Position numbers and translations under genes: made by a program. From NCBI GenBank assembly GCA_905178155.1, contig CAJINV010000001.1, positions 1,601,904 to 1,665,903 on the forward strand: DNA of 64,000 nucleotides, written 5' to 3'. Below are positions 2,037-64,000 of this stretch, in pieces. The notes beneath the pieces are model-generated. The model was not told the DNA's origin, searched no databases, and saw nothing but the letters and a program-made list of their open reading frames with translations. How positions within the stretch are numbered: position 1 is the first letter of the stretch; each line of letters opens with the position of its first letter. The stretch comes from Amoebophrya sp. A120. Taxonomy: Eukaryota; Protista; Dinoflagellata.

Positions 2037-5000
2037 TTATACCTGTTCCCTCTCCACAGGCAAAAATCGTTCCTCTTTGCCTTCATTCACCACAACGGTT
2101 GCGGGCTCCTCGTAAACCTGCTCGTGGCTGTCCCTGGTAATCTCGATCACTTTCTCGATGCAGATAATCTTCGGCACGTCAACCACCTTGTCGACGTACT
2201 TGATCTCCGGTACCTGATCGTGTGGATCGTGATCATGCGTCTTCGATGCATGCATGACAAGTCAGCACATCGTATGGGTGTGATGCGGTACCTGCAACAC
2301 AAATTTTTGAATACTTAGGTGCTGTTTCCATGCCCTGATTCGAGCCTGAAAATACAAATAGCTGTACCTCGACGATCCTCTGGACCTTGCGGATGTTCGG
2401 CACCTCGACGATTTTGTCGACGTACTCGATTTTCGGGACTTCGATGATTTGCTCCTGGCTCACCGCTACATACTTGTCGACGTATCTGTTTTGTTGTTGT
2501 TTTGTTGCTACTTGTGTATGGTGGCGGTGGGAGGATGCGGTATGCATAATGGGAGAGACACGTTTTACTTCTGCGTCCGTCTATCTCTAGATGTAGTGAA
2601 CGCAGGACATGATCCACAGTCGTGCATCTCTAGACACGTGTAGCGCCACACGACCTTTGCGTGATGTAGAAGAGAGACCACGTTCAAGAATTAGCAACAC
2701 TACAGACGTAAAAAAGCTAGTACACACGTACATTCTACTTAACAAATTGAAATACCTTGGGACTTTCTCGATTTTCGGCACCGTGACAAACTTTTGGATT
2801 TTTTTCACGGTTGGGATCTCGACGACCTTGTCGACAAATTTGGGCACTTCGACGATCTGCTCCACAATCCGCTCCGTGGGCACGTCGACGTACTTCTGTC
2901 GTTTCTCGATCTGTGGGACCTCCTTGATGATTTCCACAACCTTCTCGACCGGGACTTCCACCAACTCTTCCTCAAATTGGATTCGCGGCACCTCGATGGT
3001 GTTCTCGATAATCCGATCTTCCGGAATGTCCACATATCTTACCACCTTCTGCGTCTGCGGCACCTCCACGTACTTCGGCACCCTCTTCACCACCTTCCGC
3101 TCTACCACCTTGTCGACAAACTGGGCCGGGCCGGGCACCTCCACGATCTGCTCGAGTTCCTGCACCTCGTCCACGTGCACGTACTTTTATGAGAGTGCAC
3201 AACTCGTCGATCATCTCGACCTTGTTCGATTGTAACAGCAACTGCAAGGACCACTTCTCGCCTTTATGTTTCTTTATGTAGTCATCATGAATACCTTGCA
3301 CGAAGACAAGCAACCCTGCCTCTACATTTTTCATGCAACGGCTCCAAATCCAACAGTAAATTCTGCTGGTGTTTCAGTTTTTGCTTCTCATGCCCAACTG
3401 CTCTTTTCCACCTTCAAACGAGGAGATGATCATGATGGGGGACCAACCACGACTTGTGCCCTTGCATAGCTTCTTGATCTTTTCCACTTGCTCGACCTCC
3501 ACATACTTGGTCACTTTCCGCTCCACTTCGTACTCCTCGATAATCTCCTCAGTGGTGATCTGGTGATAGATTTTTTCATTTTGCTCCTCACATCTCTATT
3601 TTCAAGTTCTGATGCGAGAAATGGAATGCAGGAGGTGGCACTTGTGAAGATGCCGCCCGGCAGGCCACTGTCATAGATACGACGTTCTTGCGACATTTTT
3701 TAAGTACTTTGCTTTCTACTGCATGTACTACATCACCATGATCGCTGTTGCCGCCATCAAGGCCAGTAACTGAAAAATCGAACGACATAGCAGGAACAGA
3801 TATTACCTTCGGCACTTCCACAATTTTTTCCACTTCGGTCACAACGGGCACCTCGACCAGTTTCTCAACGACGACTTTTCTCGGCACCTCGACGTACTTC
3901 GGAACGTGGATGATTTTCTCCTGGATCAGCGGTTTCTTCTTCTCGATGATCTTCTCGATTACCCGCTCCTTCACGACTTCCACGGTCTTCTGACGCTGTT
4001 CCACCACGTGCTTGTGGTGGACCACGTGCTTTTTTTCCACTTCCACGTACCTCTATCCGAGTGCATAATTGTTCCCCCTCCCTCTCACTTGCCATGCAAA
4101 ATCCCAAATCCGATTGCTCCTGCTTATTGTGGCATTGTTTGCATGACATATTCTGGAAGTAGCACAACAGCCAGTACTACACGACTATACACAGAACTGA
4201 ACTTGTCATGCACAGGCTCCACCTGCGTCGGTGTTTGTATTGATGCTCATGCCATACAAATGAGAGGGAGGGGGAGCAGTTGTGCATTCTCCTAACTTCG
4301 GAATCTCGATCTCCTGTTCCACCTCCCGTTGGAGCAATCGCTCAACAACTTCCACCTTTATTTTGGGGGTTGGTTTTCCTAGTCATTCTCATTCACGCAT
4401 CACAGATCTTGTTGTCCTTCCAATCTTGCATGACAAATTTTTTGCAATGCACAGATATACCTTCGGCACTTCGACGATCTCTTCTTCCACAACGTCGACA
4501 GTGACGTGCTTGATGCGCTTATCCAAGAAAAAAACTGTGTGAGAAGTGTAAATTTGTGTAGCAGACGACGCAAGACACTTGCGCCTGTCATGCTGGACAT
4601 GCGTCAGAGGCTCTTTTCGTACAACATGTTTCCACGTACTAGCTACGCATGACAGGTTTTCTATGTCGTGCAGGGGAAACTTGTCATGCTATTGTTTCTT
4701 CAAGAAAGTTACACTTACACAGTTTCTTTCTTGCATACCGCTCCTGTATCTGCGGCACCTCGACATACTTCTGCACCGTGGACAGCTGCGGAATTTCTCA
4801 TGCAGGAGGAGAAGGAAGTAGGAGAGTGCGATTTTTGCACGTGAAGTGCATGGTGTATTGTGATTGCTAGTGCTAGATGGTTAGTCTTATGCTTGGCTAG
4901 CAAAAGATCATGATTAGTTATACTATATTTTCCTTTTTGTTTCTCAGTGCTGTGAGTTTTACAATATGCAGAAGATGCAGAGGTCAGAGCCAGTGATACA

Positions 5001-8000
5001 GATACAGATACAGATGATGATGAAACGTGCTGCTCCGGATTTATTTCCTCATCCTCGTAACTCCCGTTCGATGATCTCCTCTTGGTATTCCACTTTGGGA
5101 ACCTGCAGTTGTTTTTGTTCGGTCCGTTTGTCATGCGAAAAAACACGACACGGAGCAATTAATGGGAATGGAATGGTGTGTAGCGTATTTTGCATGACAG
5201 ACAAGAATAATAAACCAGCTCACGTACTACTACTAGTTCATCTTCTTACAGTCACATCTGTACCTCGATGATCTCCTCCTCGTACACAATCAACGGCTGG
5301 TGCTGGATCCGCTCGTGCACTTTTTCCACGTACACGGGGCGAATTTCCGTGGTCTCGACCGGTCGCTCGACAATCTCTTCGTGGACGGTAATCACCGGCT
5401 TTTCCACAATTTTCTCCACAATCCTCTCGACGGGAATCTGATAATATTTTTCAGATGCTAAATTCCAAAGTTGTGGGAGACTACACGACTGCTGCTGTTG
5501 CGTACGACACAGCACAAGCGCAACTCACTTGCTATATAATTTCGCCTTCACTGCGCAATTCACCCATAGGACGAAGGCGCGCGCAACTGAACAGAAGCGC
5601 AAGTGTTGTTGAGACAGAGCGCGCCTCAGACCGAATCGCACGACGCCCTGCGACGGTCACACTGGCAGCAAACAGAAAACCCGGCCGGCACAGCAAGCTA
5701 CAGGGAGCAAGCCACGCAAGCCAGGCTCTCGAACCCCACAGAGCCACGTCCCGGACGTAGAGGTGGGCCAAGCCGTGGGACACGACATGGGCCGCCGGAC
5801 GCGTTCCCCAGATGTGACTAAATGCCGGGGCGGCCCTGCGAACGGCAGGGGCGAAATTTTGGGCGCGGGGGTGCCCTGTGGTGTGGCCGTTTGTTGCTTG
5901 CCGCTTCTAGTTGGTGAGGTGTTGTGTAGTTCGCTCCGGCTTATGATCACTGTAGTGCGATCTTATACCGGCTAACGCCAGTATTAGACTGGGCCCGGCC
6001 CATGGCAATTGCCAAGGGCCTTGCGGGCAATGCCCTAGGAAGCCAGTAGCGTCGTGTGTTTCTGATTTCTGTCAGCGTGAAACGCAGTGCCCCCTCTCTC
6101 GCGGTTTCACCGCTGACAGGCGAGTGGCCCACCACTGCTGCTCCTCTGCTGCGTCGCAGCTCACATCGGAGAGCAGAATCATGAGACACCCGCGGCACGC
6201 AGAGCGGCAGGCCGCAGCAAGGGCTGCGCTGTTTACCGTTGCGTGTTGCCGAAAGCGCCCTCAGCCAAAGGCCGAGATGACGCCGGACATGTGCCCTGGA
6301 CGGCGTGAAGAACCACACTGCCACATCGTGGCCAGCCCGATCCTTCCTACGCTCCCCCGCCAGTGGCGCCCGCGAGAACCGCGAACGCCGGTAATCACCG
6401 GCTTTTCCACAATTTTCTCCACAATCCTCTCGACGGGAATCTGTTATAGTGTTTTTCTCATCATGCTATTAAATTCCAAATTGGGAGACGCTGCTGCTGT
6501 TCCTGTTGCGTACAACAGGGGACAAGCGCAACTCCCTCGGCGTTAAAAAGTTCTTTGCCATCAACATGCATGATGTACCAGTCTGAACAAAAACCAGGCC
6601 GTGGTACGCAGGTAGGTATTTAAGTACTTACCTGTCTTTGTCTCTTCTGCACCAATGGCTTGTCCACGTATTTGGTTTCAAAATGGATTTTCCCGGTTCG
6701 TATGGAAAGGGAAAGCTATGATACTACCAAAGAGCCGCGGCGGTCTACTGTCATGCTGATTTTTAATATCGTTCAAAATGCATAGTGGTTGCACGTCGTG
6801 GAAAATGCATAACTTTCAAAGATCGGGCTAAGTAGTACTTACATCACGCGCATTAAACTACAGCACGACATCAATCCAACCGCTAGCGCTGTTACACAAG
6901 AACTTTCCTTCCCATAAGCACTTTTCTCTCCACGATTTCTTCTTCATACTCGATTTTCGGTACTTCGATGATCTTATGCTGTGCAAAAGTTTCGTAAAAG
7001 TAGTAATTGCAATCATGCATAGCAAATCTTTTTCTTAAGGTGAGTCAGCATTACAAATTTTATTTTTCCTCCTGCTGCGGAAATTTGTAATGCATTTATA
7101 CGAGTACGATACTTTTCTTGCACTGCATAGATCTCCTCCTCCTCGATTTCGACGAGTTTCTATCCTATGTAGAAACGTCCCCACCCCATTATAGTCGAGA
7201 TGGGGAATCGGCTAGACAAATCCACAAGTTTTGGCTGTTTTGCATGACAAATTTGCACTCGTAGTGTAGCGGTGCTGTTTGAGGTAGTTCAGCAACATCA
7301 CAGAGCGAGCGCATCGTGCTGACTGGAGCATGACAAATCCCAAAACACAACTAGAAAATGCTTCTCATCATGGGGCTCCGCATGAGCAACTCTTTTGGCG
7401 TGCTGATTTGCATGACAACTCTGGGGTGGGGACGTTTTTACAAATGATAGTTTCTCGATGATGTTTTCCTTGATGTTCGGCACCTCCACGTACTTCGGTA
7501 CCACCACGGTCCGGACCATGGGCACCCGCTCGACTTCCTCCTCGTAGACAATCTTCGGGATCTCCTATGCACTGCAAAAGTTGTATTGTATCGCACTAGT
7601 AGCATTCGCATCACAAATTTCTTCAGCGTGAAGAATTGAATTTCAATTTGTGATGCCGATTAGCGTGCATGTACTTACAAAGGTAGATCTGTCATGCATG
7701 ATTGCAATTAGTACGAGCACGATGCTTTTGCAGTGCATATCTCCACAATTTCCTCGATTTCTTTCTCCACCGGACGGGAGATGATGCGACGGTGGACTTG
7801 CGGCACTTCCACTATCTTCTCCACCTCGACCACCTTCTCCACCTCCTTCTCGATGATTTGTTCTTCGTACTGGACTATGCAGTGCAAAAGTATCGTCATC
7901 GCGCTAGTATAAATCGCATCGCAAATTTTCCCAGAAACAAAAATGCAATTTGTCACGCTGGAGAAGGTAGAAAGTTAGATTTGTAATGCATGCGTGCCAT

Positions 8001-8357
8001 TAGCATTACTACGAGTACGATACTTTTGCACAGGATATGGACGACCGGAACCTCGATCACCTCCTCGATCACCCGTTCCAGGGTCTGGATCTCCGGGATC
8101 TCGATGATTTTTTCGACGATGGTCTCCTTCGGGACCTCGATGATCTTGTCTTCCAGGTACTGAATCTCCTTGGTTTCCTGGTCCTCATGCACGACATCCT
8201 CCTCGTCCTTCTTGAAGATGGGTTTCGGCTCCCCCACGCTGAGAATGCGAAAATTTGTCGTGCCCATGCTGGTCGCGGACCCGCCTAGTATGCTCAGCCC
8301 CAGCACGCTGGCGTCCAGCGGACTGGGCTCCTGGTGCGCGTTCACAAACGCCGACAT
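2037..8357 (-). CDS. Alveolin / inner-membrane-complex (IMC/articulin-like) repeat protein, ~15 introns; the 3' end may extend to ~1517
   Basis: Exons rich in EKIVEVP/VPKYVEV repeats join in frame, from ATG 8357, after removing GT-AG introns (2214-2367, 2486-2755, 3560-3806, 5103-5263, 5438-6631) and TAT...ATA elements plus one 5-bp repeat (e.g. EVPVV|QYEEQ, IVE|IPKIV, IIEK|LVEIEEEEI|IEVPK). Confidence 0.85.
3188..3468. mobile_element. Introner, family C-like (TIR element acting as intron)
   Basis: tatgagagtgcacaa...ttgtgcccttgcata; flanks acttt/gcttc (3/5); removal gives KIKK-YVHVDEV in frame. Confidence 0.65.
4054..4294. mobile_element. Introner, family C
   Basis: tatccgagtgcataattgttccccctccctctca...tgagagggagggggagcagttgtgcattctccta; flanks acctc/acttc; restores IPK|YVEVEKK. 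Confidence 0.8.
4520..4737. mobile_element. Introner (singleton family in this window)
   Basis: tatccaagaaaaaaactgtg...cacagtttctttcttgcata; flanks gcgct/ccgct; restores QER|IKHV. Confidence 0.8.
5386..6535. repeat. ~145-bp direct duplication (5386-5530 and 6389-6535) flanking an ~860-bp GC-rich insert
   Basis: 55 bp identical (5386-5440 = 6389-6443; exon start plus AG acceptor); the adjacent ~90 bp of intron is similar but diverged. Confidence 0.85.
6701..6916. mobile_element. Degenerate introner
   Basis: tatggaaagggaaag...ctttccttcccata inverted repeat; direct repeat not retained, but removing element+5 nt keeps the frame (VERK..GKIHFETKYVDKP). Confidence 0.55.
6975..7129. mobile_element. 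Introner, family A
   Basis: tatgctgtgcaaaag...cttgcactgcata; perfect direct repeat gatct. Confidence 0.85.
7161..7449. mobile_element. Introner, family B
   Basis: tatcctatgtagaaacgtccccacccc...ggggtggggacgtttttacaaatgata; perfect direct repeat gtttc. Confidence 0.88.
7566..7739. mobile_element. Introner, family A
   Basis: Perfect 15-bp TIR tatgcactgcaaaag/cttttgcagtgcata; direct repeat tctcc. Confidence 0.9.
7876..8037. mobile_element. Introner, family A
   Basis: tatgcagtgcaaaagtatcg...cgatacttttgcacaggata; direct repeat tggac. Confidence 0.9.
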
Positions 8358-9817: not shown

Positions 9818-12025
9818 CTAAATTTTGTCTTCTTGTTTGCTAGTAGTTTTGTCACTTCCAGGTTGCACACAACTACTCGTCACGGTCTCCTTCAACGTTT
9901 TTTCTAGTCTCTGGAGGAAACACGTCAACTCCGCCCTGGTCGCCCCGATCGCCACGGCAGTCGCGAGGTAGGGGTAGGGATACGTATCGGAGTGCGCCCC
10001 GTAATTTTTGAACTGGACACCGTCGATGGTTTTTGCGCCGACCGGGCAGGCGACGACGCGCGGGCCGCTCACTCGGTGGTTGAACAACTTCGCGCCGATG
10101 GAATTCAGGACCTGCTTGCGCTTCTTCTCTGCTTCTGCGACTATCGCGCCATCTCCTCCCGGGACGTCGGTTGCAGTGACTAGACCTGACAAATCGACGC
10201 AGATGGAGATTTTGTTTTCTGGCGTGTGCAAAATTCGCAGCTTGAACTGGTCGCACGTCTTCTGCAGTTCCTCTTTGAACCACTCAAAGTCGGTCTTCCG
10301 GGTTTTCCACAAATTCTGCAGCCCGTCGGAGCCCATGGCAAGAAACGTGATCAATAAATCGACCATTTGTGCCCCCGAGGCGCGTCCGGGATAGCACTGC
10401 GCAATTTGGTCGAGCAAGGAGAGTTTGTTTGCTGTTGAAGGTGGGTTGCTAGTCGTGCTGTTAGCTGAAGCTGCACCCGCCCCAGCGTTTTTACTGACAT
10501 CTTCTACTACTTGCGGTCCACCACCACCACCACCACTCTTCATGACCGGCGGCCTTTCCTGTGGCGCGCACACGATGGCGCCGCCGACCGGCACCATAAA
10601 ATTCTTGTCTGTGCTCTGCACCACTACATCGACCCTGCCGGTCCTAGACGCCTGCTCGATGGCCTGCATCGTCCGCGAGCACTGGAGCCCGTATGCGTTG
10701 TTGATCAGAAACGCCACGTCGTGCTTCTGGCAGATTTATCCACAGAAAAAAACCTATCCACATCCAATTTGTCATGCAAAACACGTATAAAATGAAAATC
10801 ATGTTGTTGTCATACAAAAAAGGGATGTGGATGGGTTTTTTTCTGTGGATAAGATTTTCGCGACCTCCTCAATTTTGTCGGGCACGCGGGGGGCGAAGGT
10901 GGAGGCCGTACAGAAAACGCAGAGGATGTTGTCCGCGCCAAAATCCTCTATCGCTTGTTCAATCCCGGCCACGTCGGTCATGAGACCATCCCCGCGAGTA
11001 TCACAGCAAAAAGTTTCAACGTTAACGGAATTTGTGATGCAACAATGCATCACAAAACATGCCGAAATGTGTAATGCATAGCATGCATCTTGGGCTACAT
11101 TGACATTTGTGATGCATGACTGCAATCTGTGAAACAAACCGTTAAGGTTAACACTTTTTCTTGTGATAGCTCGGCGTTTTGATCAGCTCCACGACGATCG
11201 GCGTCAGCCCGCTGGTGTTGATCGCCTTGAAGCAGCTCTTCTGGTCAATCAGGTATCAAATGCAAATATGTCTGGGTCTGGAAGAGTCATGCTGTTTTTG
11301 CATGACGCAGAACCAGAAGGTCTGGAATGGAAGCTCTAGCATCACAGGTTTCGAGAAGCGTTCGCAATGCCGAATCCGCATGACAAATCCCTGATTTTGG
11401 TGACAGAAAGTGGGCAATTTTTGCTACCTATGCATGAGAGGTTTTTCTGTGTTCGGACATGCGCATCACAAGTTTGCATCCTTCCAGACCCAGACATTTT
11501 TGCAGTTAATATCCGGGACCAGATCACGAATTTTCTGTCCTTCGTGGTGTCGCGTTGCTGCAGTGCGAGAAAGCACAACGTCATGGTCATGCCCGTGGCG
11601 AGGGGCACGACGAGCGCGTTTTTGCAGTTTTTAAAGCCGGCGAGTCGCACCGCGTCGAGCGCCAAATACTTGCACAAACTCGCCAGTAAGCTGCTTCCGG
11701 CGGCTTTGGGCTGTTGCGCCACCAAATCGCCGGACCGGCCGACGCCGTGCGTCAAGCCAAAGTGCCGCTCCTGGACGAGTCGGGAAAACACGCGACCCTC
11801 TCGCTCCCCTACCCCAACGTTCCCGTTCGCGTTGTTGGCGTCCATGAGGGAAATTTGCCGGAGAAAGCTCTCGATCTCGAGGTCGGTCCAGGGCTCCTTC
11901 GGAAGTTTCCGCTGGGTGAGGAGCACCATGATTTTCTTGGACAGACTGTTAAAGCCCTGTTCCGCCTGCTGCACGTACCCCGGGTCGAGCAGACCCTGCA
12001 TCTGGCCGAAGTGGGACGCTTGCAT
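9818..12025 (-). CDS. SEPSECS: O-phosphoseryl-tRNA(Sec) selenium transferase (4 exons)
   Basis: Motifs GVGEREGRV, HGVGRSGDL..QPKAAGSS, VVPLATGM, WSR|IDQKSCFK, STFAPRVPD, INNAYGLQ, VQSTDKNFMVPVGG, YPGRAS; frame is restored by removing three TAT...ATA elements. Confidence 0.95.
10737..10851. mobile_element. Introner (115 bp, ~29-bp TIR)
   Basis: tatccacagaaaaaaacctatccacatcc...ggatgtggatgggtttttttctgtggata; direct repeat agatt; restores VAKI|CQKHDV. Confidence 0.92.
10999..11168. mobile_element. Introner (singleton family)
   Basis: tatcacagcaaaaagtttcaacgttaacgg...ccgttaaggttaacactttttcttgtgata; flanks gcgag/gctcg; frame restored (KTPS|GDGLMTD). Confidence 0.82.
11254..11511. mobile_element. 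Introner, family D
   Basis: tatcaaatgcaaatatgtctgggtctggaag...cttccagacccagacatttttgcagttaata; flanks tcagg/tccgg. Confidence 0.9.
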
Positions 12026-30581: not shown

Positions 30582-30693
30582 TATTATGTACTTTTCAAAA
30601 ATTGGCAAACATACTGTCTGCTACACGAAAATGAGGCATCACCCTCAACAATTGCGCGGAGTACTATGAGTTGGAGCTCCCGGCGCATAATTC

Positions 30694-40770: not shown

Positions 40771-40792
40771 TGTGTGTGTGTGTGTGTGTGTG
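40771..40792. repeat. (TG)n microsatellite
   Basis: About 11 TG units. Confidence 0.9.
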
Positions 40793-46852: not shown

Positions 46853-49800
46853 TTATCCCGGCACCCCATCTGCTTTTTTCGCCGCGTGCTGCGCTGCTAG
46901 TGCGTTTATCCTATGTTGCACGGAATGCCACTTGTTTTGCGTTGCGAGCGAGTAGGGGTGGCTCGGGCCGCACAGTATGGCAAACTGCGACTGCGCTTTC
47001 CGGTACAGAGTGAGGCACTCGGACAGTCGGGAAAGTCGCTCGCGGTTGTTTTTCCCCTTGTCCGCCGGCGAGCTTTGAGAACTACTATTGCCACTTTTCA
47101 GCGGATTCGCGCTCGACCCGCGGCTCGGAGAGCTGGCTCCGCCGGCAGACGGGGAGCTGCCGCCACTTTTAGTGCCCCCGGTCTCGGGCTGCGCCATCGA
47201 CTGGAGGTTGTCGGCGAGGGCTTCGAGATCGCCCGCCCAGATGAACGAGGGACGCCCAAACGTGCGCTCGTGATAGGAGATGCGATTGCGCTGGTGGAGC
47301 ATGGAGGCACCGAGGTCCTTTCTGGTCTCGGTGTAGTACTCGCCTAACAGTTGTTCGCACTGGAAGACGCACCAATGATTCTCGTGAAAGAAATCCAGGG
47401 TGGCATTGTATACCTTTAATCATTAAGAGTATTTGTAATATTATAGTGACGAGACCACGTCGTGGCGTTAGTTTGCTGGAAGTGGATATCCATATTTGTT
47501 GCAAAGAGGGAAACAACAAGCACGAGTATGACCAGGACGATAAAGAAAATCTTTCATCATCAACAAGATAAAAATACCAGTTCCATGTCCTGGATGTTTG
47601 TTTTGTCCAGTTGCTCAATCCTTTGTACGTATTTTATGGCGTTCTCAAACGTTACATTCTCAACTGTTACAACATGATTTTTTGTCATGCAAAATGACCA
47701 TGAGCCGCCAGACGATCGAGCTGCTTCGAATGACAAATTATCGGAGGGCTAAACAGCATCTAACTCTGGGCCAAATTTGTGATGCACGACTCGCAAGCTT
47801 GCCCCTTTCCCTATTGCTGTTTTTTGACAAATTCGTGTAACAGTTGAGAACGTAACATTTGAGAACTCCATATATTCCGGCTCCAGAGACAAGCACTGCT
47901 CGGCCGCAAAGTCCGTGCAGGGTTCCCCGCAGACGTCGCAGGCGGTCAGCCGCTCGCTCGGCCGTATCTTGGCCTTCTTGGAAGCCGGAGACAAGCTTTT
48001 TGGCTCGTCGTTCATATCGTTGGTCTCTGCCTCGCGAAGTAGACCACCTCCTCTACCTGGCGACGCGCTTTTCCTTCCATTTGAAGCGTCCTTCTCCCTC
48101 ACGCCACTGCTCCGGCGATTGGAGGACCCACTTGTTCCTCCCGGTGATTTGTCCGTGCGGCTGATTTTCACGGGCGATTTCTGGCCGCTCTTGCTGCGCG
48201 CGGTGGGGGACGCGGCGCTCGGGTTTTGCCGTTTGCCGGCCGGTATCAAATGCAAAAATGCCTGGGTCTGGAGTGTTGCCGGGTTTGTCATGCATATTTT
48301 GCATGACCCAGGATGTCTGTAATGTATGACCTAGCATCACAGATTTTTAGAGGGCTTCCTGGTGCCTATTCCGCATGACCAAGGCCCTCCCCGCGTAGCA
48401 CAAACTAGACTCCTCCTGCTGATCATGCAATACAGATTTTTTTTGAGTCCAAAGCTCGCATCACAAGCTCCAACCTTCCAGACCCAGATATTTTTGCATT
48501 TGATAGCCGGGTCCGACCCCACGATTCGGCCGTGGAGGAGCGCGGAGCTGTATGAAGGTGCACAAGTACTACCCCTCCCCCTCATTTGTGTTGCATGAGC
48601 TGCAATAGAAACACCAGTGCACATGGAGCCTGCGCATGACAAGTTCATGCGCGTAGCTAGTGTAGTACTTTGTAGGCTTCCAGAATCTGTCATGGTGGAA
48701 ACGGTGCGACAAGGCAGCGCTTGGATATGGGATTTTGCATCACAAATAAGGGGGACGGGGAGGGGGAGCTGTGCACTCTCATAAGCTGCTGCTGGCCGAC
48801 GAGGAGGAGGACGAGGAGGACGCGGACCGCGTCGACTCAGAGCACACGTCCTGGTAGAGCAGCTGCTGGCTCTGCCGGCCAAACCCGGTGAAGTTGGTGC
48901 TCTCCCCGACGGCCGTTTTCACCCGCGGAACATTCCACGTGAACAGCTTGTGGTCCTTCTCCTTCTCCTGTAAATTTACGTTCTTGCACTTCGGACTACT
49001 GCTGGACGACGTGGCTTGGAACCGCATTTCCTCCTCGTTCTTCGTGTACTGCTTGCGAATCTGCTCCGTCTCGGACGGGTTGTAGTTCTCCTTGTAGTAG
49101 TGCGCCCCCGCGCGGCACCGCAGGCACCGGTAGCCGCGGCTAACGTCCACTTTCAGGTTGCACCGCGTGCAACCGCAGGTGAACTTCCAGTTCTCGAGCT
49201 TTTCGCGCCGGACGTCTGTGCTCTTCAATAGGTCTTCGTCCTGAAGAGAGGAAGTAGTTGTGGGGCTTTTTCTACTAGGAAGAAGTCATGGATTCGTAAG
49301 GCTAGAAGCATCATCAAAATCAAGTTTCGATGCGAGCGCTGCGATGCGCAGCGCTGGCTCCGCCCTGTATACCTGAAGATAGCTGATGGTGAGTTCGGAG
49401 CCCGCTTCCAAGGCCACCCGGGCCCGCAGCACGAAGGAGTCGTCATCCCCATACGTCCAACAGCAGGACGGGTCGCAGGAGTGCGCACACATGCTGATCC
49501 GGTTGTACAGAACGAGTCCGTCCTCCGTGTGGTGCCCGAAACTGTTGTACCGCCAGGCGTTGTATCCTGTGCAAAAGTATCGTATTCGTAGTAATCGGAG
49601 TCATGCATTACAAATCTCCATCCCAAGGCAAATCGGCATGACAAATTGCGTTTCTCATGCTCAGCTAATTTGTCATGCGATTTATACTAGTACGGTACTT
49701 TTGCAATGCATACGTTGATCAGCGTTTGCAAGAGCGTTTTGGTGAACTTCTTGCCGGAGGGAAACACGGCCGACGTGTCGGCAGGCATCACGCTCTTGAC

Positions 49801-50992
49801 CGCGACAAAATTCTGGGGAAACCCGAGCTTGTTGAAAATCCGGTGCACGTCCGCGCCCACGACCTCTTTCTCCTCATCCGGAACGAATTTGTCTTGGACG
49901 ACCTGCATAGCATTTGTGTATGAGTCCAACAAGCAGCACATGCCGATGCCGAACCGATCACGATGGATATTTATACATGAATTGCAGTAGAACTAGCATG
50001 CTGACAGACGGTGTTGCGGTTCTTGCAGCAGCATTAGCATTACGCATCACGTCCACGCTCTCGCCCTCGCCCACAAGTTATTTCCCTTCTGCCTTACCTG
50101 CAAGTCCGATGAGCCGAGCTCTAGCAGGCTGAGCAATGCTGCGTAGGCGAAGGTCCAGGTGCCGAGCTCAAACTGTTCTTCCTCGTGTAAGGACTTCAAG
50201 GCGTCCCACAAACCTTGGTGCCTGCTTTCGATCGCGACCAGCGTCGCCGCCTCGCAAAAAATGACTTCCCCCGAGCGGAGCGCGTAGCGGGTGAAGAGAC
50301 AGCGACCTTGTTGTATATGGTTCGATTTGAAGTCGGCGGTGAAATAGTTAGAGTTGGCGCTTGTTACACACCTCGCAAACAAGCAACATTCGAGAATCAT
50401 GGAGGCGCTGTTAGTCTCAATGCTGCAAGTAGGACATCTTGATCTTCAATGCCACACGAGTGACGGAAAAACTAGGACAAGAAGGGCAATAAACCTTTGT
50501 TTGGTAGGTCTTGGACAAAGGCCGCGTCCTCTATTTGGTGCCTGGGATAGGGTCGTGCGTCCTCGATCTTGGAAACGTCGGAAAGCGCGATAACGCGGTC
50601 TACCGTGTCCCCATCGTCCCAATCCACCACGACTTCCCCGCCTTTCAGCTCCCGAATCACCGCTGGGTAGTAGGTATGCATTGCAAAAGTTTCGTACTTA
50701 GTACAAATCACACCACAAATTTGCGCAAGAAGAGGAAACGTAGAATTTAAAATGCGTGTACAGCTCGGGAATAAAGACAATTTCGTATTTCACTTGTCAT
50801 GCATGATTGCAAATGCCATCTCCTGTACGAGTGCGACGCTTATTGCATTTCATAGTAGGAGCCGTTTTGGGTCCACTTCGCATGCACCCGGTCCCCCACG
50901 ACGAGACTTTTCCGGGAAGACGTGGAGTTGCGGGCTGAGGTGTGGTTGTTCTGAGGCGCCGCGGGCGGCGGGGGTGAGAATGCAGAGGCCAT
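46853..50992 (-). CDS. Tudor-like + SET (SMYD-like) lysine methyltransferase; the Tudor exons may be a separate gene
   Basis: VGDRVHAKWTQNGSY|YPAVI..VVVDWDDG (Tudor/Agenet-like); GRCLFT..LRSGEVIFCE; YNSF..LYNRISMCAHSCDPSC; GSELTISY; WKFTCGCTRC (post-SET); CGPSHPYS. Confidence 0.82.
47635..47872. mobile_element. Introner, family E
   Basis: Homologous to 43168-43413; flanks tattt/tattc. Confidence 0.87.
48244..48505. mobile_element. Introner, family D
   Basis: tatcaaatgcaaaaatgcctgggtctgga...tccagacccagatatttttgcatttgata; direct repeat gccgg. Confidence 0.9.
48551..48783. mobile_element. Introner, family C
   Basis: tatgaaggtgcaca...tgtgcactctcata; direct repeat agctg. Confidence 0.88.
49563..49712. 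mobile_element. Introner, family A
   Basis: Direct repeat cgttg; restores LIN|AWRYNSF. Confidence 0.9.
50675..50854. mobile_element. Introner, family A
   Basis: tatgcattgcaaaag...ttattgcatttcata; direct repeat gtagg. Confidence 0.87.
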
Positions 50993-54517: not shown

Positions 54518-57500
54518 TCAGCAATACCACGAGTCTGGCCTACAGGTGGTTGTGTGCACCCGAAAACTGTATTTCGGGCAGTAATTCACCGTGTAGGGTT
54601 CCCACAATAACCTGTTCACGCCGTCCTCCTTCCACGGCTTCAATGGGCCGGTCCAGTGGAACAAGCCTCCCTCCTCCAGCACCGGTTTGGGGTAGTTCAA
54701 CCGGTGCCCCAGCCCGTCGACGTTCCACTTGTAGGGCAGTTTGCAGGCCTCGTCGTGGAAAAGGAGCAGCATCAGGGGCTGCGATCCGTGCCGCCAGAGC
54801 GTCTCCGGCCCGGAGTTGTCGCGGGACTGCAGCCAGTGGTCCAGCTTCTGCTGGATCTCCGGGCGGTTGCGCCACCGGGCAAGGTCGATGAGCAAAACGC
54901 CGGCGTTGAAGGCCGGATTGTTCATGGGAATCCATTCCGGCATAAAGGGGTACATGATCCCGGGGAGATAGTTGAACAGCGGCGAGGACGGCCGGATGGC
55001 GGCACAGATATGAACTGCAAAAGTATCGCACTCGTAGTTGATTTCTTAAGCCAGGTAAATCCACATTACAAATTCTTTGTTTCTCATGCTCAGAAAATTT
55101 GTAATGCAATTCAAACTAGTGCGATGCTTATGCTTTTGCGATTCATAACAGACCGTCGCTTGCGATTTTTCCAGCACTGGGGAGAAGTCGGTCCACAACG
55201 ACCGCAAATCCTTTTTGACCAGCACGTCCACGTCGAGGTAAATGACTTTTGCTATCTGCTTTGGTAGCAACTTATGCAAATAGAATCTCACGTAGTTGTG
55301 CAACGCTTGAAGATTCCCCGTGTCCCGTTGAAACCCTTTCGACACGTCAATGTCGCCCCCGACCTGGAACCGTTTCTTCTGCGCCAGCTCGGAGTCCGGA
55401 ATCAAATTTTTCCCGACCATTTGCTCGTCGAGTCGATGAAGAAGAATGGGCGCTGGGCTGCGAGTCACGTCCGGGTGCTGGTGTAGAAGTCGTGTGGGGG
55501 AGATTTTTGATGTTGCAGTTGGGTCATTAGGGGGCCTCATGTTGTTCTCGTCGTCCCTTTGGTGCTGTGCCGCGTACTGCAGTTGATTCGTCACAGTCTC
55601 GGGATTGTCCGCACTCGGTTCTTGTGCTGAACCGTCCTCCTCTCCGTCATCATCTTCGTCCACTTGAGCGACAATGCCTGCGCTTGTCGTGATCGTTTCG
55701 GGAGACTGCTCTCTTTGAGGATTTCCTACCTTGACTGAGTCGTAGAGGACGAATTTTCCAAGTTTCGCGTATTCCGCAGATTTAGATGTTGTTGCTCCTT
55801 CCGGGAGGTCTTCATTTGATTCCGCTTGTGGCGACGTTGAGAACAGCGAGGAGAACATGCCCGCACTACTTCCACTTGCACTCGGATGTTGGTCTAGTAC
55901 TTCTTGCGCTACTTCATCTGGAGGACCACGCGCCGCAGTAGATTTCGTCCCTACTTCGTGAAACCTTTCCGCCCCAAAAGCACACTGCAGCCCGTCCACG
56001 AGAAATTTCCGCTCGTGTTCCAGCAAGAAGACATGAATGCAGGTGTTGGACTATCCTGAGTAAAAACGTCCCCACACCAGAGTCGAGATGGGGACTTCGC
56101 AACACAAACCTTGAAGTTTTGGGAGTCACACATGACAAATTGCAGGCTGTAGTGTAGTGCGGTTTAGCAAGGGAAGCCGCAAAATAAATCCACTCTCTTA
56201 TCCTGTTTGGAGCATTACACGTTCCAAAACACACTGGGAAATGCCTCTCATGGGGATGCGCACAAATCCTCTTGCGTTTGCAGATCTGCATGACAACTCT
56301 GGGGTGAGGATGTTTTTACACAGGATATGGCCGGATTTTCCGCGTGGCGGACCATGGAATTCAAAGCGACGATGATGCCGTCGATCTGCTGGATGTCCGC
56401 AGAGACGGCGACGTGGACAAGATCACCGACGGTTCTTGTGTGGTGATCCAACTGAAAACATCGGCTGGTAAAAACAGATCCACCTCCTGCTCTTTCGTCA
56501 ACTGTTTGATGTCCCTCTACAACCTGCGGCGCAGCGGACGATACTGCTGGCACAGCACTGACACTCGTCTCCTCTTTCGCCCGATTATACTTCCTCCCCG
56601 TCTGCACGGCTTTGTTTGGTGGCGGAATGTAGGAGGCAGACTTCAGATTGAAGAAAAGCATGGGTAGCACCCGCCGGCGCTCGATCCGCGACAGGACTTG
56701 CCAGTACGCCCAGTCAGACCGGAGATGGTGGTAGACCGTCATGTTGGTCCTGCAATTGTGGACCTGCGCCTCCCCGAAAAGAATGAAGTTTTTCGTCTCG
56801 TTCCTGGCCTGCTCGAATGCATTGCAAAAGTATCGTATTCGTACTGATCGGACTTATGCACGACAGATATATCATATCTTGATACCTGACCTCGCATGAC
56901 AAATTGCATTTTTGTTCTTGAGAAAGTTTGTAATGCTATTTCTACGTAGTACGATACTTTTGAAATGCATAGCTCCATGCTGTGCTGGTTGTTCCTCTGA
57001 AACTCCGCCACCGCGGTCTCGATAAGTTGCTCCGCAAGGGTGAAATACGCACTGGCGATCCCACCGTGGCACTTCGCGTCCTCTTGCTCTGCGAGGTAGA
57101 GCAGCGAGCCGAAAAACCCAGCCTGCGTATGCATTGCACAAGTATCTTCGCACTCGTACGTAATTGCGGCTGTGCAGGACAATTGTGTTTCCTAAAGCTA
57201 AACTAACATGACAGATGCCATTTGTAATGCTGAGCAAGGTTGTAATGCAATTCCAATTTCGACCATGGCGGGGACGCGTGCGATGCTTTTACGATGCATA
57301 CTGCGCCGTCTTCGACAGTTCGTGGAACGAACGATCGAGGGCGCGGTCTTCGCTCGGAACTACAGGCGGTGTAGTCGATTGGGGCTGCGCTGCAGCACCT
57401 GATACAGGTGGTGATGAAACAGCATTCGCAAGAACACTGCTGCGCTGGACTCCTGCTGTTCCTGCCCCTGCTGCCTCCCCTACTATTTCCACAAACGGAG

Positions 57501-59850
57501 AATCTACGAACGCCGGCGTCATGTCCATGCTCAAGCCGCTGATGCCAACACCAGTCGGCGTATGAAAGTGCACAACTCCGCCTCGCCCGCATTTGTATTG
57601 CATGAACAGCAAAAATACGAGCACAAGTGTCCTCAGCAAGAATACAGGTTTTGCATGACAAATTATTTGGACAGGAGTGTATAGCTGTTCGGGCTGCTGA
57701 AAGAAACTTGTCATGCAACCAGTGCCAACACGGGCCAAGGCGTAAATTGGGAATTTTGCATGACAAATGAGGGGGAGGGTTGTGGTGCAGTGTCATACGG
57801 CGCCGGGTACTTCATGACGTCCACTTCGTACCTGGAGACTTATTATCCTGTGCAAAAGTATCGCACTCGCAGTAATCGCAATCATGCATTACAAATCTTT
57901 ATCCCAAGGCAAAACAGCATGACAAATTCAATTTGTCATGCTGAGCTAATTTGTATTGCAATTACTATACATTATATTCATGCGAAAAAAGAGGTAGACA
58001 GAGGGTAAACAAGAGGTGGCCGAGAGGTCAAAAAGAGGTCAAAAGAGGTAAAAAAGAGGTCGACAGAGGTGGAGAGGTGGCGCGGACCCCTTTCGAGAGG
58101 GTCGGCGAGAGGGTGCGCGAGTATAGCCCGCCGAAGGCCCCACCTTAAGGCGGCGCCTAAGTGCCTCAGAGGGTGCAGAGAGGTCAAAAAGAGGGGGCGC
58201 GAGAGGTCGACAGAGGTCGAGAGAGGTGGCGCGAATAAGGGGCGACCTTTCGCGGACCCTCTTGGCCACCTCTCGGCCACCTCTGTCGACCTCTACCCGC
58301 GAGTATAGCCGGACTATTAGCGGGGACCCCCAAAAGAGGTAAAAGAGAGGGTCTGCGAGAGGTCTGCGAGAGGGTAAAGACACAAAGTGGCGGGCGCGAA
58401 TCCGCATGGCACTACCCATATTTGGCACTGCAGGCCATTCGCGGACTTGTTTTGTTCGGTGCCCGTCCCCACCACCCTCTCGCGCCACCCTCTCGCGCAC
58501 CCTCTCGCGCACCCTCTCGCGCCACCCTCTCGCGCCACCCTCTCGCGCACCCTCTCGCGCCCCCCTCGCGCCACCCTCTCGCGCCACCCTCTCGCGCACC
58601 CTCTCGCGCCACCCTCTCGCGCTACCCTCTCGCGCCACCCTCTCGCGCTATCCTCTCCCGCCGCGCGCCTTCTGTTCGCCCCCGGTGTTCTTTGCAGCTG
58701 CTCCCTGCGCCGAGCGCCCGCAGGCGCGGGAAGCGCGCAAGTGGTCCTGCGGGTTGGCGCGGCGCAAACCGGCGGCACGAATGCAGTATGTTTCGTTGTA
58801 CATAGGCCCGTGGGGTTGTGGTCCGATCGGCAAACAGTCTTGCCCCGGCCCAACAGCCTTGCGCTCCGGCGGCAGCCGGAGCATGGCTGGTTACTACTAG
58901 TGCGATACTTTTGCAGTTCATACCTGTCCAAGAATATCCAGTAAACTGAACAGTGGCCATCCCGAATTCAGCACGTCCCAGTAGGACAAAGGCACCAACT
59001 TCTTGAAACTCGCGCCGCCCATTTTTGTCGTCTGGAAGTACGCCAGCCGGTCTTCGGGCGGGTGGAGGTAGACTTTGAGGAAATTCAAACACATCATCCC
59101 CAAGTAGCATCGCGACAATGGTGTGAACTCCATCTCTAAATACGGCATCAGAAAATCGATCGCGTTGGATCCCTGCCGGCTGTGCACCACGTCCTCGACG
59201 AGTTGGTACATGCCTCGTTTCACCCCGCCCCAATCCAGGCCGTCCGGCTGCTGAAACGCCTCGCAGGACAAATCGGACACCTCGGCAGCCATGCCACCCT
59301 CATATATCAAATGTAAAAATGTCTGGGTCTGGAAGAACGCAACTTGTGCTGCTGCATTTGGATTCCAGAAGAATCTGTATTGCATGAGTACCAAGAGCAG
59401 GAATGCAATTTTTGCTACGCGGAGAGGGCATTTGTCATGCGGAATAGGCATCGAGAAGCTCTCAAAAAATCTGTGATGCTAGGGCATGCATCACAGACAT
59501 CAGGGCTCATGCAAAACGTGCATGACAAGTGTCAGAATCTTCCAGACCCAAACATATTTGCATTTGATATCATAGCAGTGCGGGCAACTCCACATGTTGT
59601 AGTTGCCGGGCTGCTGTGCGAAGGTAAGGGTTGTCAGAATGGCGAGGAGCGCCGTGAATAGTAGGGCTAGGCGGGGAATGAGCCGAACGATGTGTTCTGC
59701 AGGTCCACCGAGCGGTTTTTGCGGCCACACTGCTCTTATCTTTTCGAGCCAGCGTGGTCTGCGACTGCGTCGCCGTCCAACCTGAGGCTTTCGTATTCGC
59801 GTTCGGGGATACGGCTTCCATGCTGCCGCGGTGGGAATAAGGTCCGCCAT
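54518..59850 (-). CDS. Glycosyltransferase family 8 (GLT8D/GAUT-like) type II membrane protein with a long N-terminal extension
   Basis: N-terminal TM; NYVRFYL, VIYLDVDVLV (DxD), FNAGVLLIDL, GSQPLMLLLF, HWTGPLKPW; seven introners. Confidence 0.88.
55009..55147. mobile_element. Introner, family A
   Basis: tatgaactgcaaaag...cttttgcgattcata; direct repeat acaga. Confidence 0.88.
56052..56327. mobile_element. Introner, family B
   Basis: tatcctgagtaaaaacgtcccca...ggatgtttttacacaggata; flanks tggac/tggcc. Confidence 0.88.
56816..56971. mobile_element. Introner, family A (AAT variant end)
   Basis: aatgcattgcaaaagtatcg...cgatacttttgaaatgcata; flanks gctcg/gctcc. Confidence 0.83.
57128..57300. mobile_element. 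Introner, family A (diverged)
   Basis: tatgcattgcacaag...cttttacgatgcata; direct repeat ctgcg. Confidence 0.85.
57561..57797. mobile_element. Introner, family C
   Basis: tatgaaagtgcac...gtgcagtgtcata; direct repeat cggcg. Confidence 0.87.
57968..58890 (+). mobile_element. Nested ~920-bp element with a Helitron-like 3' hairpin and CTGG end
   Basis: Interrupts the introner at ttacta (present on both sides); ends gctccggc-ggca-gccggagc-atggCTGG; many gaggt repeats in the first third. Confidence 0.65.
58473..58655. repeat. Minisatellite, 12-13-bp unit accctctcgcgc(c), ~14 copies
   Basis: Tandem units visible directly. Confidence 0.92.
59305..59569. mobile_element. Introner, family D (opposite orientation to 11254 and 48244)
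   Basis: Direct repeat tcata; the interior is the reverse complement of the 48244 interior. Confidence 0.9.
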
Positions 59851-60517
59851 CTTGCTTTTTGAAGAAAGTGGTACAGGGTGAAACTGAAAGTGTGTGTCTT
59901 GTCGCTTCAAAGTCAGCATGGTGATTTTAGTAGTTTCAGTGAAATACCTCTACCTAGACAGACTTCTGCATGTGTCGTACTGATTCGAAGACTCGATCGC
60001 TTTAATCCGTAGCGTATGGGCACTAGTACATCAAGGTCACTACACAAGACCATGCTGTCCAACTCCAGGTTAGCTAGGTAGTTTCGATCAAACAGAACAA
60101 AACAAAACCACAGAAAACCACAGTCATACACGACAGAAGATGCGGCCAATCGAGATCATCAACTTCTAGGGCACGACGAAATTGAAGAGAAAAAACCGAT
60201 AACCAGGATGCGAAAATGAACAGTGTGACAGACTATATTTTTGCAATTACATGAGTAAGGAACTGTTCGTAGAATAGAGATCTGAAAAGGCCGAAGGCTG
60301 CAAAACTATTTTTCCACACCGGAGAACGAAAGTCACCATGCCGTGTACGAGAATTATGATCAAGAGGTCGGGAGCAGAAAAAACACCGATCATGGTCTGA
60401 CCATTCTGCAACACCAGATCCACGAAATGAATACAACTACACTGAACAGCACGAGCTAGCGCTTAGAGAAAGAGCGACCCCACCTGTTGGCAGACCGCTG
60501 CACTCAGAACCCATTTT

Positions 60518-62363
60518 TCATCTGATGCACACACCCAGACAATCTGTGACGCGTGCCACGATTCGATTTTGAATCTCGTTGACCTCTTCGTGAGTCAGTG
60601 TTCGGCTCATGTCTTGGTACACAATGCGATACGTTTTCGAGCGTCTGTTGGTTTTTGGATGCGTGAAGTCGGAAATTAGGCGGACCGACTCAACTAGGTT
60701 TCGACGTTCACTTAGTCGTGAACGTGATGTTGTTTCAGGCGGATAGTAAATATCGCTGCGCGTGTGTTGCTCATTGTCATCCCCGGCCAGCGGGAGCGCC
60801 AGATCGGCCTCCTCGCGAATGGTCTCGAAGAAATCATTCTCCGGAAACGTGTAAAGGTCTTGTTGCACCGCCGGTTTGACATCGCTGCGAGACATGTAGT
60901 TAGTACTCCCGTTATCCCGTCCTTCACCTTCTGCTTTTTCGGAGCTGCGCAATACTCCTCCCAGATTCTTCTCTCCAGCTGCTTCAAGTGCTGGTAGCCA
61001 AAAGCTGAGGTCTTTTGCAATGGCTGGGTATTTGGAAAAGGGCTTGAATTCAACTTCTCGCCACTTCTCGCCGCCAGCTTCCAGATCCTTACTCAGTGTG
61101 TGAAACTGTTCAAGAAAGCGCTCGTCGTGGGACCAAAACAACCGGATGTCTGGAATCTGGAATATGGATGTGTCAGGTGTGAAATCGTCAAAGTTGAAAT
61201 AGTTTGTCATGCATAAAACGGATACCAGTTAGACCTACAGTTTGTAGTCGGTGCATGGCAAATTTTCCCGGTCCTGGAAGCGAGTCTGTCATGCGGTTTA
61301 GGGCAAAAGAGCTGCCTTCTGTCATGCTAGTTAGCAGTCCAACTTTTGACCCTTACCAGGACTATAATCTGCCTCCCGTGGGTCCTCTGCAATAGAGTCA
61401 CTTTTTGTGTTGCATTTTATGCATGACAAACTATTTCGATTTTGCTGATTTCGATCCTGACACTCCCATATGAAACAGCAGCATCGCAAGGCGCTCCAGA
61501 CCGAAACCAAAGGCCCACCCGGAGAATCTTTTCACGTCGACGTGGCCCTTTGCGAGCACCTCGGGGCGTAATATCCCGCAGCCGAGCACTTCGAGCCAGG
61601 GATCATCGGCAGACTGGGTGGAGCTCCTGTCGGTGCTTATTTCTCCGCGGGAGGAGGGCTTTGAAAGCTTCACTTCCAATTCGAAACTCGGACTGGTAAA
61701 GGGAAAGTAATCGTCGCTCCAACGTAAGAACTCCATGGAAGAGTGATCACGTCTTCTCCCTTGATGTCCAAACAAGTGCCGCATGGTACTCTCGCATGTG
61801 TGGCGGAGGTCAGACTGGATTCTTTCCAAGAACAAATGATCTACCTCGCCGGCCCTTTTTTCGAACAGCTTCACTCCTTCCATTTGGTGGAAGACCGGAA
61901 AGTGCGTGCGGTCAATCTCGTCCCGCCGGTAGACGTCTCCGGTGAGCAGGAATTTCCCGCGCCAGTAATTCTCCGGCTCGTGCGTCGTCGTGTGCGTGCG
62001 GAGGCATTTTCCCTGGTCGTAGTCCTCGTAATACGTGTCATTCGGGAGGCGGCTGCTGTGCCCCTTGGGGATGAGCAAATTGTCAAAATTCTCCGCCACA
62101 GTTACCACCGGGTTAAGCGGGGCGGAGACAAGTGCGAAATCTTTGTTAATATTTTCGACGAAGTGCCGCTCGACGATTTTGCGCACGAGAAATAACGGAT
62201 GATCGTGAGTCTCATGCAAGGTCCGACCGATCTTCTCGCGGATGCCGGAGGGTATGTTCGAGGTGAGTTTCGTGTTCGTGGCAGGCGGTGGAGGCGAGAC
62301 TTGATTGGACAACCGAGGAAGGGCACTTGCGAACGTACGCCGGGAAGACAAAATGGTAGACAT
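60518..62363 (-). CDS. FARS2: Mitochondrial-type monomeric phenylalanyl-tRNA synthetase
   Basis: Arg/Ser-rich presequence; NFDNLLIP..HSSR..DTYY, LRTHTT, GDVYRRDEID.THFPVFHQMEG, YFPFTSPSFE, WLEVLGCG, GWAFGFGLERLAM.LF|QIPDIRLFWS; C-terminal FDX-ACB (FTHPKT..YRIVY). Confidence 0.95.
61163..61470. mobile_element. Introner with ~56-bp TIR
   Basis: tatggatgtgtcagg...gaaatagtttgtcatgcataaaa / ttttatgcatgacaaactatttc...cctgacactcccata; flanks tggaa/tgaaa. Confidence 0.9.
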
Positions 62364-62957: not shown

Positions 62958-64000
62958 TCAGTCCGTATCAAAGTCGTCATCCTTGCAGAGTTTGTAGAAC
63001 CACAGCGGGACGGCGATGACAAAGAGCACCCACGCAGCCCACTTGACCGGGTTCGGCTCGTAGATGCCCGGCCACAACACGTCCCAGAGCGAGTACAGAA
63101 CGATCGGGACCGGCTTCGGCTTCGTTCGCGTCTGGTCCGGCTCCACCCAGGGCGCCGTGGCGATGGCCAGGTCCTTATCCTGTGTAAAAACGTCGCCACC
63201 CGAGGGCTGTCATGCAGATTTGCCATGACAGGAACATTTGTGATGCGCATCCCCATGACAAGTTTGTTCGATCGTGTTTGGGTGGAATTTGTAATGCTGT
63301 AAAGAGGATAAGCAGAGCGATTTGTAATGCGGCTGTCCTTGCTAACTTTCACTACCTTACGGACTGCAACTTGTCATGCGTCACTTCCAAAACTCCTTAG
63401 GTTTGTCTTGCAAAATCCCCATCTTGACTCTGGGGTGGGGACGTTTTTACCTAGGATAGTCCTTCCGGCCCTTGGTGCGCGCGTAGAGGATGGGGGTTTC
63501 CGGGTTCCGCGGGGTCATTTTATCGTAAGGAAAAATCTCCTCCCCATATCGAGACAGGATTCGTGATGCTGGATCTGCGTACACAAATGCGCTCTGTATT
63601 GCAGGAAGGCATTGCGGCCAGTAACAAGTCTAGGTCGGGGCGTTTGGTCTAGTTGCTCAGCATTGCAAACGGCTGCCCCCTAGGCCCAACAGCATGCCAA
63701 ATCGCTTCCATAATGGGACGGGAGCTTCGGCGCTTGTGTTCTTGCAAGACAAATGTGATTTGTGAGCACAAATTAGCAACACAAATTTTCGGAAACATAC
63801 CTTTTCAATATGGGGAGGGGGATTTTTCCTTGCAATACATTTCCGTGATCCACCACTGGTGCAGCGCCTTCTTGTTGTCCGGGTCCGGCGGTGCGTGGAT
63901 CAGGTAGAGCTGGCTCCTCCCCGTGTCTATCAAGTGCAAATATCGATCTGGGTCTGGAAACTTGTCGTGCTAAAGTGTGTTTGGTGGGCGGACTGCAATA
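62958..64000 (-). CDS. 3' part of a hypothetical gene with a C-terminal TM helix
   Basis: ..TKGRKD|LAIATAPW..WAAWVLFVIAVPLWFYK..*; continues beyond the window. Confidence 0.65.
63176..63458. mobile_element. Introner, family B
   Basis: tatcctgtgtaaaaacgtcgccaccc...gggtggggacgtttttacctaggata; direct repeat gtcct. Confidence 0.9.
63597..63837. mobile_element. Possible degenerate introner
   Basis: tattgcaggaa...ttccttgcaata inverted repeat; no direct repeat retained. Confidence 0.45.
63928..64000. mobile_element. Introner, family D (cut by the window end)
   Basis: tatcaagtgcaaatatcgatctgggtctggaa. Confidence 0.75.

Follow-up and report, generated by a model that had tools for sequence, protein, structure and literature searches.

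Farhat et al. described in 2021 the introner elements of the dinoflagellate Amoebophrya sp. A120, repeated introns bounded by inverted repeats that start with TAT and continue with seven variable bases and an A-run, with bordering direct repeats of 3 to 5 nt (the legend to their Fig. S19 gives a 5-bp example) and variable splice sites (PMC7789003). They counted 29,850 repeated introns, with hairpins and RNA-seq support; about 65% of the RNA-supported introns of A120 were classed as noncanonical, their splicing being left unexplained, and 15% of the canonical introns share the anatomy of the elements (PMC7789003). We analyzed a 64,000-nucleotide stretch of this genome (contig CAJINV010000001.1, positions 1,601,904 to 1,665,903; here called the window) in which genes are interrupted by short elements with TAT...ATA termini and are restored when each element is taken out together with one copy of a flanking 5-bp duplication. 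These are the published A120 introners, with the same TAT-initiated inverted repeat, A-run, border direct repeats, hairpins, and RNA support; the system was already known, and the elements themselves are not new. A preliminary description of the window had pointed to the right system as a precedent but presented as a parallel what is the same genome and the same elements. In contrast to the 3 to 5 nt given by Farhat et al., the repeat is strictly 5 bp, lies outside the TAT/ATA ends, and is unbiased in sequence and orientation. This uniform rule, blind to orientation, usefully sharpens the published description and is not stated in the available portions of the texts, although their figures may show part of it, and as far as those portions go the later papers leave the mechanism open (PMC11282704, PMC12005148, PMC12787238, PMC12501133, PMC13326754, PMC12130899, PMC2836005, and bioRxiv 10.1101/2020.10.14.339549).

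Comparable introns are known elsewhere. The nonconventional introns of euglenids likewise lack GT-AG and have paired ends, frequent direct repeats that render the junctions slidable, and a proposed origin from miniature inverted-repeat transposable elements (MITEs), but they carry the signature N3CDG...CH'GN5-6|R and yield circular products (PMC12501133; PMC11282704), whereas the A120 elements end in TAT/ATA, their arms are long and differ between families, and their repeat is fixed at 5 bp. The introners of Polarella, Symbiodinium, Micromonas, and Aureococcus are also nonautonomous elements with terminal inverted repeats (TIRs) and target duplications that turn into introns, some of them occurring in both orientations and, in Polarella class 12, with a 5-nt duplication; their GT, GC, or GA and AG are supplied by either the element or the duplication, which constrains their duplications (bioRxiv 10.1101/2020.10.14.339549; PMC11282704), whereas those of A120 are unconstrained. 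The non-GT/AG introns of Fritillaria borealis share the TIR, the target site duplication (TSD), the lack of GT-AG, and a genome-wide spread but differ in their preferred AG-AC and AG-AT ends and in having kept a conserved U1 (PMC11282704, PMC13326754).

A scan of the window for TAT...ATA pairs with an arm identity of at least 14/20 returned 35 pairs, and in 25 the flanking repeat matched at 4/5 or 5/5 positions; 20 composition-matched sequences from a first-order Markov model each yielded 1 to 4 pairs, 0 or 1 with such a repeat. After application of an end profile and curation, 32 complete elements were retained, with a 5-bp duplication that is perfect in 21, matches at 4/5 positions in 8, and matches at 3/5 in 3, almost exactly the tally of the preliminary description (about 34 elements, 20 perfect and 8 at 4/5). 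Lengths run from 115 to 317 bp in 30 of the 32 elements, and the two with nested inserts measure 1079 and 1626 bp. In the window elements tested, the direct repeat matched only at a length of 5, and the end profile agrees with the published motif (TAT, seven less conserved nucleotides, and at least three A). Short, bounded by TIRs, flanked by a duplication of fixed length, and devoid of coding capacity, the elements have the anatomy of MITEs, and they do not have the GT/GC...AG ends of U2-type spliceosomal introns. An exact GT-AG placement exists for 1 of 31 elements tested (4054-4294), in keeping with the earlier claim that most could not be placed with such ends, and a GA-AG or GC-AG placement exists for 5 of 31. 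These fits, and a TTTTGCAG-like tract near the ends of the 150-bp family, are what speaks for ordinary splicing at nearby GT-AG pairs, or for dead genes; against this, the closest frame-keeping GT-AG pair of the other elements is 3 to 56 nt away or absent, being at least 5 nt off in all but one of them, with none within range for two.

The rule was then examined on a larger scale: a single end pattern led to 149 loci (490 kb) in a metagenome collection, and all 80 listed of the 149 are on contigs of assembly JACKZZ01, which may not be the same strain as A120; one 28-nt end pattern had 0 matches in viral contigs. Among 110 family members of this second assembly, the repeat was exact at 5 bp in 87, at 2 bp in 13, and at 3, 4, or 6 to 10 bp in 0 or 1, and base use in the duplication was even. 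Detection blind to the repeat produced 398 elements, of which 284 had a 5/5 and 80 a 4/5 repeat, and the resulting 364 elements at 4/5 or better fall into 29 clusters (the largest of 168 and 72, mostly from the second assembly) to which the rule is common; element lengths were 109 to 417 bp in a scan restricted to 80 to 450. With a model of codon use built from the exons of the window, the reading frame was called separately on each side of 335 elements, and one 5-nt copy must stay in 82 of the 85 confident calls that were concordant in strand. GT-AG fits 4 of these 82; GT and AG at element-assisted offsets were present in 21/82 and 24/82, which is the frequency of G, no dinucleotide was enriched, and orientation among the frame-called elements was 17:17. 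An intron start of the form N-UAUG, mimicking a GUAUG donor, was considered but found no support, as G was not in excess (21/82) and TATG was not in excess at the 5' side. These data support removal of the element with one random 5-bp duplication, with no preference for sequence or orientation, and they support the contention of the preliminary description that the duplicated 5-mers are unrelated and no dinucleotide is required. Its claim of a single rule stands for 82 of 85 calls and has to be qualified by exceptions in the window: a mutated terminus at 56816 and at 4054, the element at 19851-20010, which has no matching duplication, and that at 30765-32390, which has no host gene assigned. 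At 19851-20010 the host gene continues for more than 1650 codons, and no GT-AG placement restores its frame.

The published variety of splice motifs is likely just a reflection of random target duplications. The motifs that predominate in A120 in Table S4 of Farhat et al. all start with N-T (PMC7789003), as expected if the last base of the repeat is followed by the first T of the element; they do not fix the true cut, as a preference of the aligner could place junctions there. Under a single rule, the diverse splice motifs reported would come down to one geometry; such a rule would also allow gene models to be corrected and supply simple substrates for testing the catalyst.

Mismatches between the repeat copies amount to 6% per site, flat with respect to nearest-neighbor identity, and are synonymous in 27/45 cases (26 once two window rows assigned to the wrong strand are corrected), where a fixed cut predicts 0.38 to 0.45; the excess (P of 0.003 to 0.03 on the 27/45 count, sensitive to model assumptions) is a weak hint of a sliding cut. 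Given the flat mismatch, selection keeping the copies identical has no support beyond the mild synonymous excess. At element 57844 the cut must fall past position 2 of the 5-nt repeat, the upstream position 2 being required by the frame. Known motifs would suggest position 3 of the upstream copy at 11254 and 4054 and position 5 of the downstream copy at 3188, but a distant homologue at L055 has a third residue, and a search at L029 returned nothing.

Host proteins provide the second line of evidence, all reconstructed genes being on the minus strand. The first exon of FARS2 has 100% identity over 304 amino acids to P0001, a protein named as being from Amoebophrya sp. A120, and FARS2 minus its element and 5 nt is identical to this deposited 519-residue protein. 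In the GT8 gene, seven removals, including that of the 1079-bp nested element, give 989 amino acids collinear with, and 50% identical to, the A25 orthologue; this comparison, made at the protein level, is free of gaps at 6/7 junctions, and at the seventh a gap lies directly beside the junction, where the sequence is variable. It follows from the GT8 frame that the enlarged 1079-bp intron is still removed. The same operation opens frames of 549 amino acids in the SepSecS-like gene and 907 in the DegP-like gene. Pfam confirmed FARS2, GT8, and SET; the first DegP exon had only trypsin matches below threshold, and no Pfam family was assigned to one DegP exon or to two open reading frames (ORFs) within the 57844 insert. 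The restoration of genes reported earlier was reproduced for these four genes, and removal likely takes place in RNA. Ordinary GT-AG splicing and dead genes sit poorly with the gap-free GT8 junctions and the deposited FARS2 protein, and we regard this explanation as the least credible of those considered. Of the outcomes named at the outset as fatal to the rule, the use of GT-AG pairs and dead genes are contradicted by the RNA contig described below, by the restored proteins, and by the frame calls.

Four of 13 sequencing runs (X1, X3, X11, and X12) were compared with positions 42000 to 61900 of the window, the imperfect repeats in its left part being outside RNA coverage. X1 resembles DNA, with even depth over genes and gaps; exons and element edges were at a depth of about 37 to 46, contigs ran into the elements, which were kept, and summed depth over the elements was very high, far above that of the flanks. 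X3, which we guess to be RNA, had near-zero depth in several intergenic bins. In its record 9, window positions 44407 and 44563 are adjacent, so that 155 nt are skipped, which is the length of the 150-bp element and 5 nt more; two stretches that X3 does not list, of 64 and 236 nt, have the exon lengths expected without three more elements plus 5 nt and two GT-AG introns. Within this interval and this putative RNA run, absence from mature RNA with non-GT-AG ends is exact at one junction and fits by arithmetic at three. X11 and X12 (raw RNA under the same species label) gave 132 and 203 reads, of which 99 to 100% ran on into unlike sequence, and were uninformative on these genes. At 59304-59336, 73 to 90 RNA reads of X11 carry the end of the 263-bp family between different flanks; a copy of this end is therefore transcribed, without being spliced, from another locus in a related organism.

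Inverted repeats with one retained direct repeat are also the signature of precise DNA excision, and the elements might be excised from the DNA of expressing cells like the internal eliminated sequences of ciliates. We consider this improbable: the DNA-like run keeps the elements at even depth, and only the RNA-like contig is without them, GT-AG introns also being gone from it. A stage-specific excised form could still exist, as a single DNA run was compared and contigs drop rare variants. It is also conceivable that the elements stay in mRNA and that ribosomes hop between matching codons, the deletion in cDNA being an artifact of template switching; hairpins between direct repeats are a known source of false introns in cDNA, a 5-nt repeat by arithmetic always contains one full in-frame codon, and the mild excess of synonymous mismatches would fit. 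Against hopping, 12/17 amino acid-changing mismatches are inside the full codon (a hand count with two rows omitted), about 3/5 being expected for an unprotected codon; the landing codon at 57844 is a stop; and one gene would need seven hops, one of them of more than 1.08 kb. Hopping therefore appears very improbable. Because template switching could mimic the deletion, the argument from protein frames weighs as much as the contig.

Arm agreement is 79 to 98% at positions 8 to 15 and 35 to 57% at positions 4 to 7. The terminal TAT is not strictly required; it is conserved at 95 to 98% when detection ignores it (about 3% change per position), and extra selection on it was rejected, its conservation not exceeding that of inner arm positions that are themselves favored by detection. 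The motif GCAT-[GTC]-ACA is present in 352/364 elements, on both strands and at about 10 times the density of the flanks, and might be a binding site for a transposase or for an RNA factor. When two elements were folded, the z scores were -6.7 and -7.2, and the inner arm pairs formed in both orientations in 20/21 elements folded. GCAT-N-ACA was also seen in 4/9 other introns checked (2214-2367, 4356-4460, 5103-5263, and 37990-38110), and introns that bear it may be old elements turned into ordinary introns.

The reading that we prefer, with a probability of roughly 0.55, is that a remodeled spliceosome removes these published introners, each with its arbitrary 5-bp duplication, by stem-guided splicing. 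A DDE transposase or integrase would insert the element through a 5-nt staggered cut; in the pre-mRNA the arms would pair in either orientation, best at positions 8 to 15 and loosely at 4 to 7, and bring the two repeat copies together; the stem, perhaps with a protein on GCAU-N-ACA, would substitute for recognition of the U1/U2AF type, and cutting and joining at an equal offset in both copies would leave exactly one. We infer that the stem sets the splice sites from the orientation-blindness and the lack of dinucleotide bias. The spliceosome is favored because A120 has a near-complete one (83 of 89 spliceosomal proteins kept, with U1 snRNA undetected; PMC7789003), because decayed elements grade into GT-AG introns, and because TIR/TSD-derived non-GT/AG introns of Fritillaria are reported to use the spliceosome (PMC11282704).

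The spliceosome of A120 and the Fritillaria precedent count equally against the notion that a separate protein endonuclease and ligase read the terminal stem, as proposed for euglenid introns, and release linear or circular RNA. In favor of such enzymes are the lack of dinucleotide bias at any offset and of orientation bias, the hint of a sliding cut in the synonymous mismatches, and the introns of Euglena, which need complementary end motifs, have proposed nonspliceosomal factors, and give circular RNA (PMC12501133). No candidate for such an enzyme came to light, no search having been aimed at one. We hold this tentatively as the main rival. Equally tentatively, A120 may possess a second, nonspliceosomal mRNA splicing pathway that reads only the hairpin, measures to the 5-nt duplication, and cuts anywhere within it. 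Any insertion, in either orientation and into any sequence, would then be removed scarlessly and exons would be free landing space; a catalyst other than the spliceosome would represent a new route for nuclear mRNA splicing.

Several points weigh against splicing by a remodeled spliceosome or against the data behind it. No chemistry has been demonstrated for a spliceosome blind to both dinucleotides and to orientation; neither a lariat nor a circle nor a cut intermediate was seen; and any inverted repeat would be expected to fold strongly. The RNA support is one contig of a run whose RNA nature is a guess, a single junction being bracketed directly, and template switching by reverse transcriptase gives the same deletion. 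The frame test discarded 240/335 elements as not confidently callable, and 10 were discordant in strand; a cruder test based on ORF length preferred the additional 5 nt in only 130/277; and the orientation marker (position 4) is crude. Finally, a transposase-bearing copy was not seen in the 490 kb of loci or in the window, and Farhat et al. report no transposase found in A120 (PMC7789003).

The elements are likely nonautonomous DNA transposons inserted in the manner of MITEs, and the fixed, unbiased duplication suggests a DDE enzyme that cuts with a stagger of 5 nt. The preliminary description had advocated a search for long TAT...ATA copies encoding a transposase, and this was unrewarding: there are seven long TIR pairs in the 490 kb and the window, and the four inspected, without a library scan of their ORFs, contained nested repeats or host exon. 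Among the integrase-type DNA transposons Ginger2/Tdd, TDD-4/5 make 5-bp duplications (PMC2836005), but Ginger termini are TGT...ACA and not the TAT...ATA of A120. A120 introner family 38, which is said not to have Ginger termini, is a TIR element that carries Copia-like ORFs (PMC12130899); by its integrase-like ORFs, it is a candidate mobilizer of the TAT...ATA elements.

Longer repeats are nested within some elements. One, with many short GA repeats and a length of about 0.9 kb, is present within TAT...ATA elements at 57966-58890 (in 57844-58922) and at L008 505-1608, and also at L047 and L017. Another repeat, about 0.7 kb long, has two copies in the window, at 29852-30595 and 30898-32368 (nested in 30765-32390), and also at L039 7338-8028; no clear target duplication was visible by eye. 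At L077 2085-3440, an element of the 150-bp family with a perfect repeat has reached 1356 bp through an insert that has its own long inverted ends and contains a 268-codon open frame.

Table 1. TIR elements and related features of the window, in window coordinates, with flanking repeats and host genes
Feature	Position	Strand	Remarks
TIR element	3188..3468	.	ACTTT/GCTTC (3/5); in minus-strand repeat-protein gene 1
TIR element, mutated terminus	4054..4294	.	ACCTC/ACTTC (4/5); sole exact GT-AG fit
GT-AG intron, TIR relic and two GCAT-N-ACA motifs	4356..4460	-	Likely decayed element
TIR element	4520..4737	.	GCGCT/CCGCT (4/5)
TIR element	6975..7129	.	GATCT (5/5); repeat-protein gene 2
TIR element	7161..7449	.	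GTTTC (5/5)
TIR element, 150-bp family	7566..7739	.	TCTCC (5/5)
TIR element, 150-bp family	7876..8037	.	TGGAC (5/5); orientation opposite to DegP copies
TIR element, SepSecS-like gene	10737..10851	.	AGATT (5/5)
TIR element, SepSecS-like gene	10999..11168	.	GCGAG/GCTCG (3/5)
TIR element, 263-bp family, SepSecS-like gene	11254..11511	.	TCAGG/TCCGG (4/5)
Decayed element, no matching duplication	19851..20010	.	156-nt or 165-nt cut restores frame, neither GT-AG
150-bp-family element, nested repeat inside	30765..32390	.	CACGT, perfect; no host gene assigned
TIR element, 263-bp family	33317..33577	.	GTCCT (5/5)
TIR element	38158..38316	.	TTTCC (5/5)
TIR element, DegP-like gene	42268..42417	.	CTCTA (5/5); missing from putative RNA contig (length arithmetic)
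TIR element, DegP-like gene	43168..43413	.	ACCAA (5/5); missing from putative RNA contig (length arithmetic)
TIR element, DegP-like gene	43527..43683	.	ACTTC/ACCTC (4/5); directly past GNSGGP motif
TIR element, DegP-like gene	44414..44563	.	GTGCA (5/5); 155 nt (element+5) skipped in putative RNA contig
TIR element, SET-domain gene	47635..47872	.	TATTT/TATTC (4/5)
TIR element, SET-domain gene	48244..48505	.	GCCGG (5/5)
TIR element, SET-domain gene	48551..48783	.	AGCTG (5/5)
TIR element	49563..49712	.	CGTTG (5/5); adjoins PF00856 SET match
TIR element	50675..50854	.	GTAGG (5/5)
TIR element, GT8 gene	55009..55147	.	ACAGA (5/5)
TIR element, GT8 gene	56052..56327	.	TGGAC/TGGCC (4/5)
TIR element, GT8 gene	56816..56971	.	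One end AAT instead of TAT; GCTCG/GCTCC (4/5)
TIR element, GT8 gene	57128..57300	.	CTGCG (5/5)
TIR element, GT8 gene	57561..57797	.	CGGCG (5/5)
150-bp-family element, 1079 bp via nested repeat, GT8 gene	57844..58922	.	CTTAT/CCTGT (3/5); keeping whole downstream copy gives a stop
TIR element, 263-bp family, GT8 gene	59305..59569	.	TCATA (5/5)
TIR element, FARS2 gene	61163..61470	.	TGGAA/TGAAA (4/5); removal yields deposited protein P0001
TIR element	63176..63458	.	GTCCT (5/5)
TIR element	63521..63837	.	CATTT (5/5)
Further element, left end only (window edge)	63928..64000	.	

The gene that we call SepSecS-like is presumably of that family, and repeat-protein gene 1 is taken by us to be alveolin/IMC-like. 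The latter contains a candidate GA-AG intron at 4797-5047, with borders placed by eye, and a piece of about 50 bp of its first exon (6390-6440) recurs 1 kb upstream (5390-5440). A 1.25-kb segment is doubled at 24338-25562 and 27404-28654, the copies being 95% identical and separated by about 3.07 kb; the surrounding repeat region is GC-rich and has no recognized genes.

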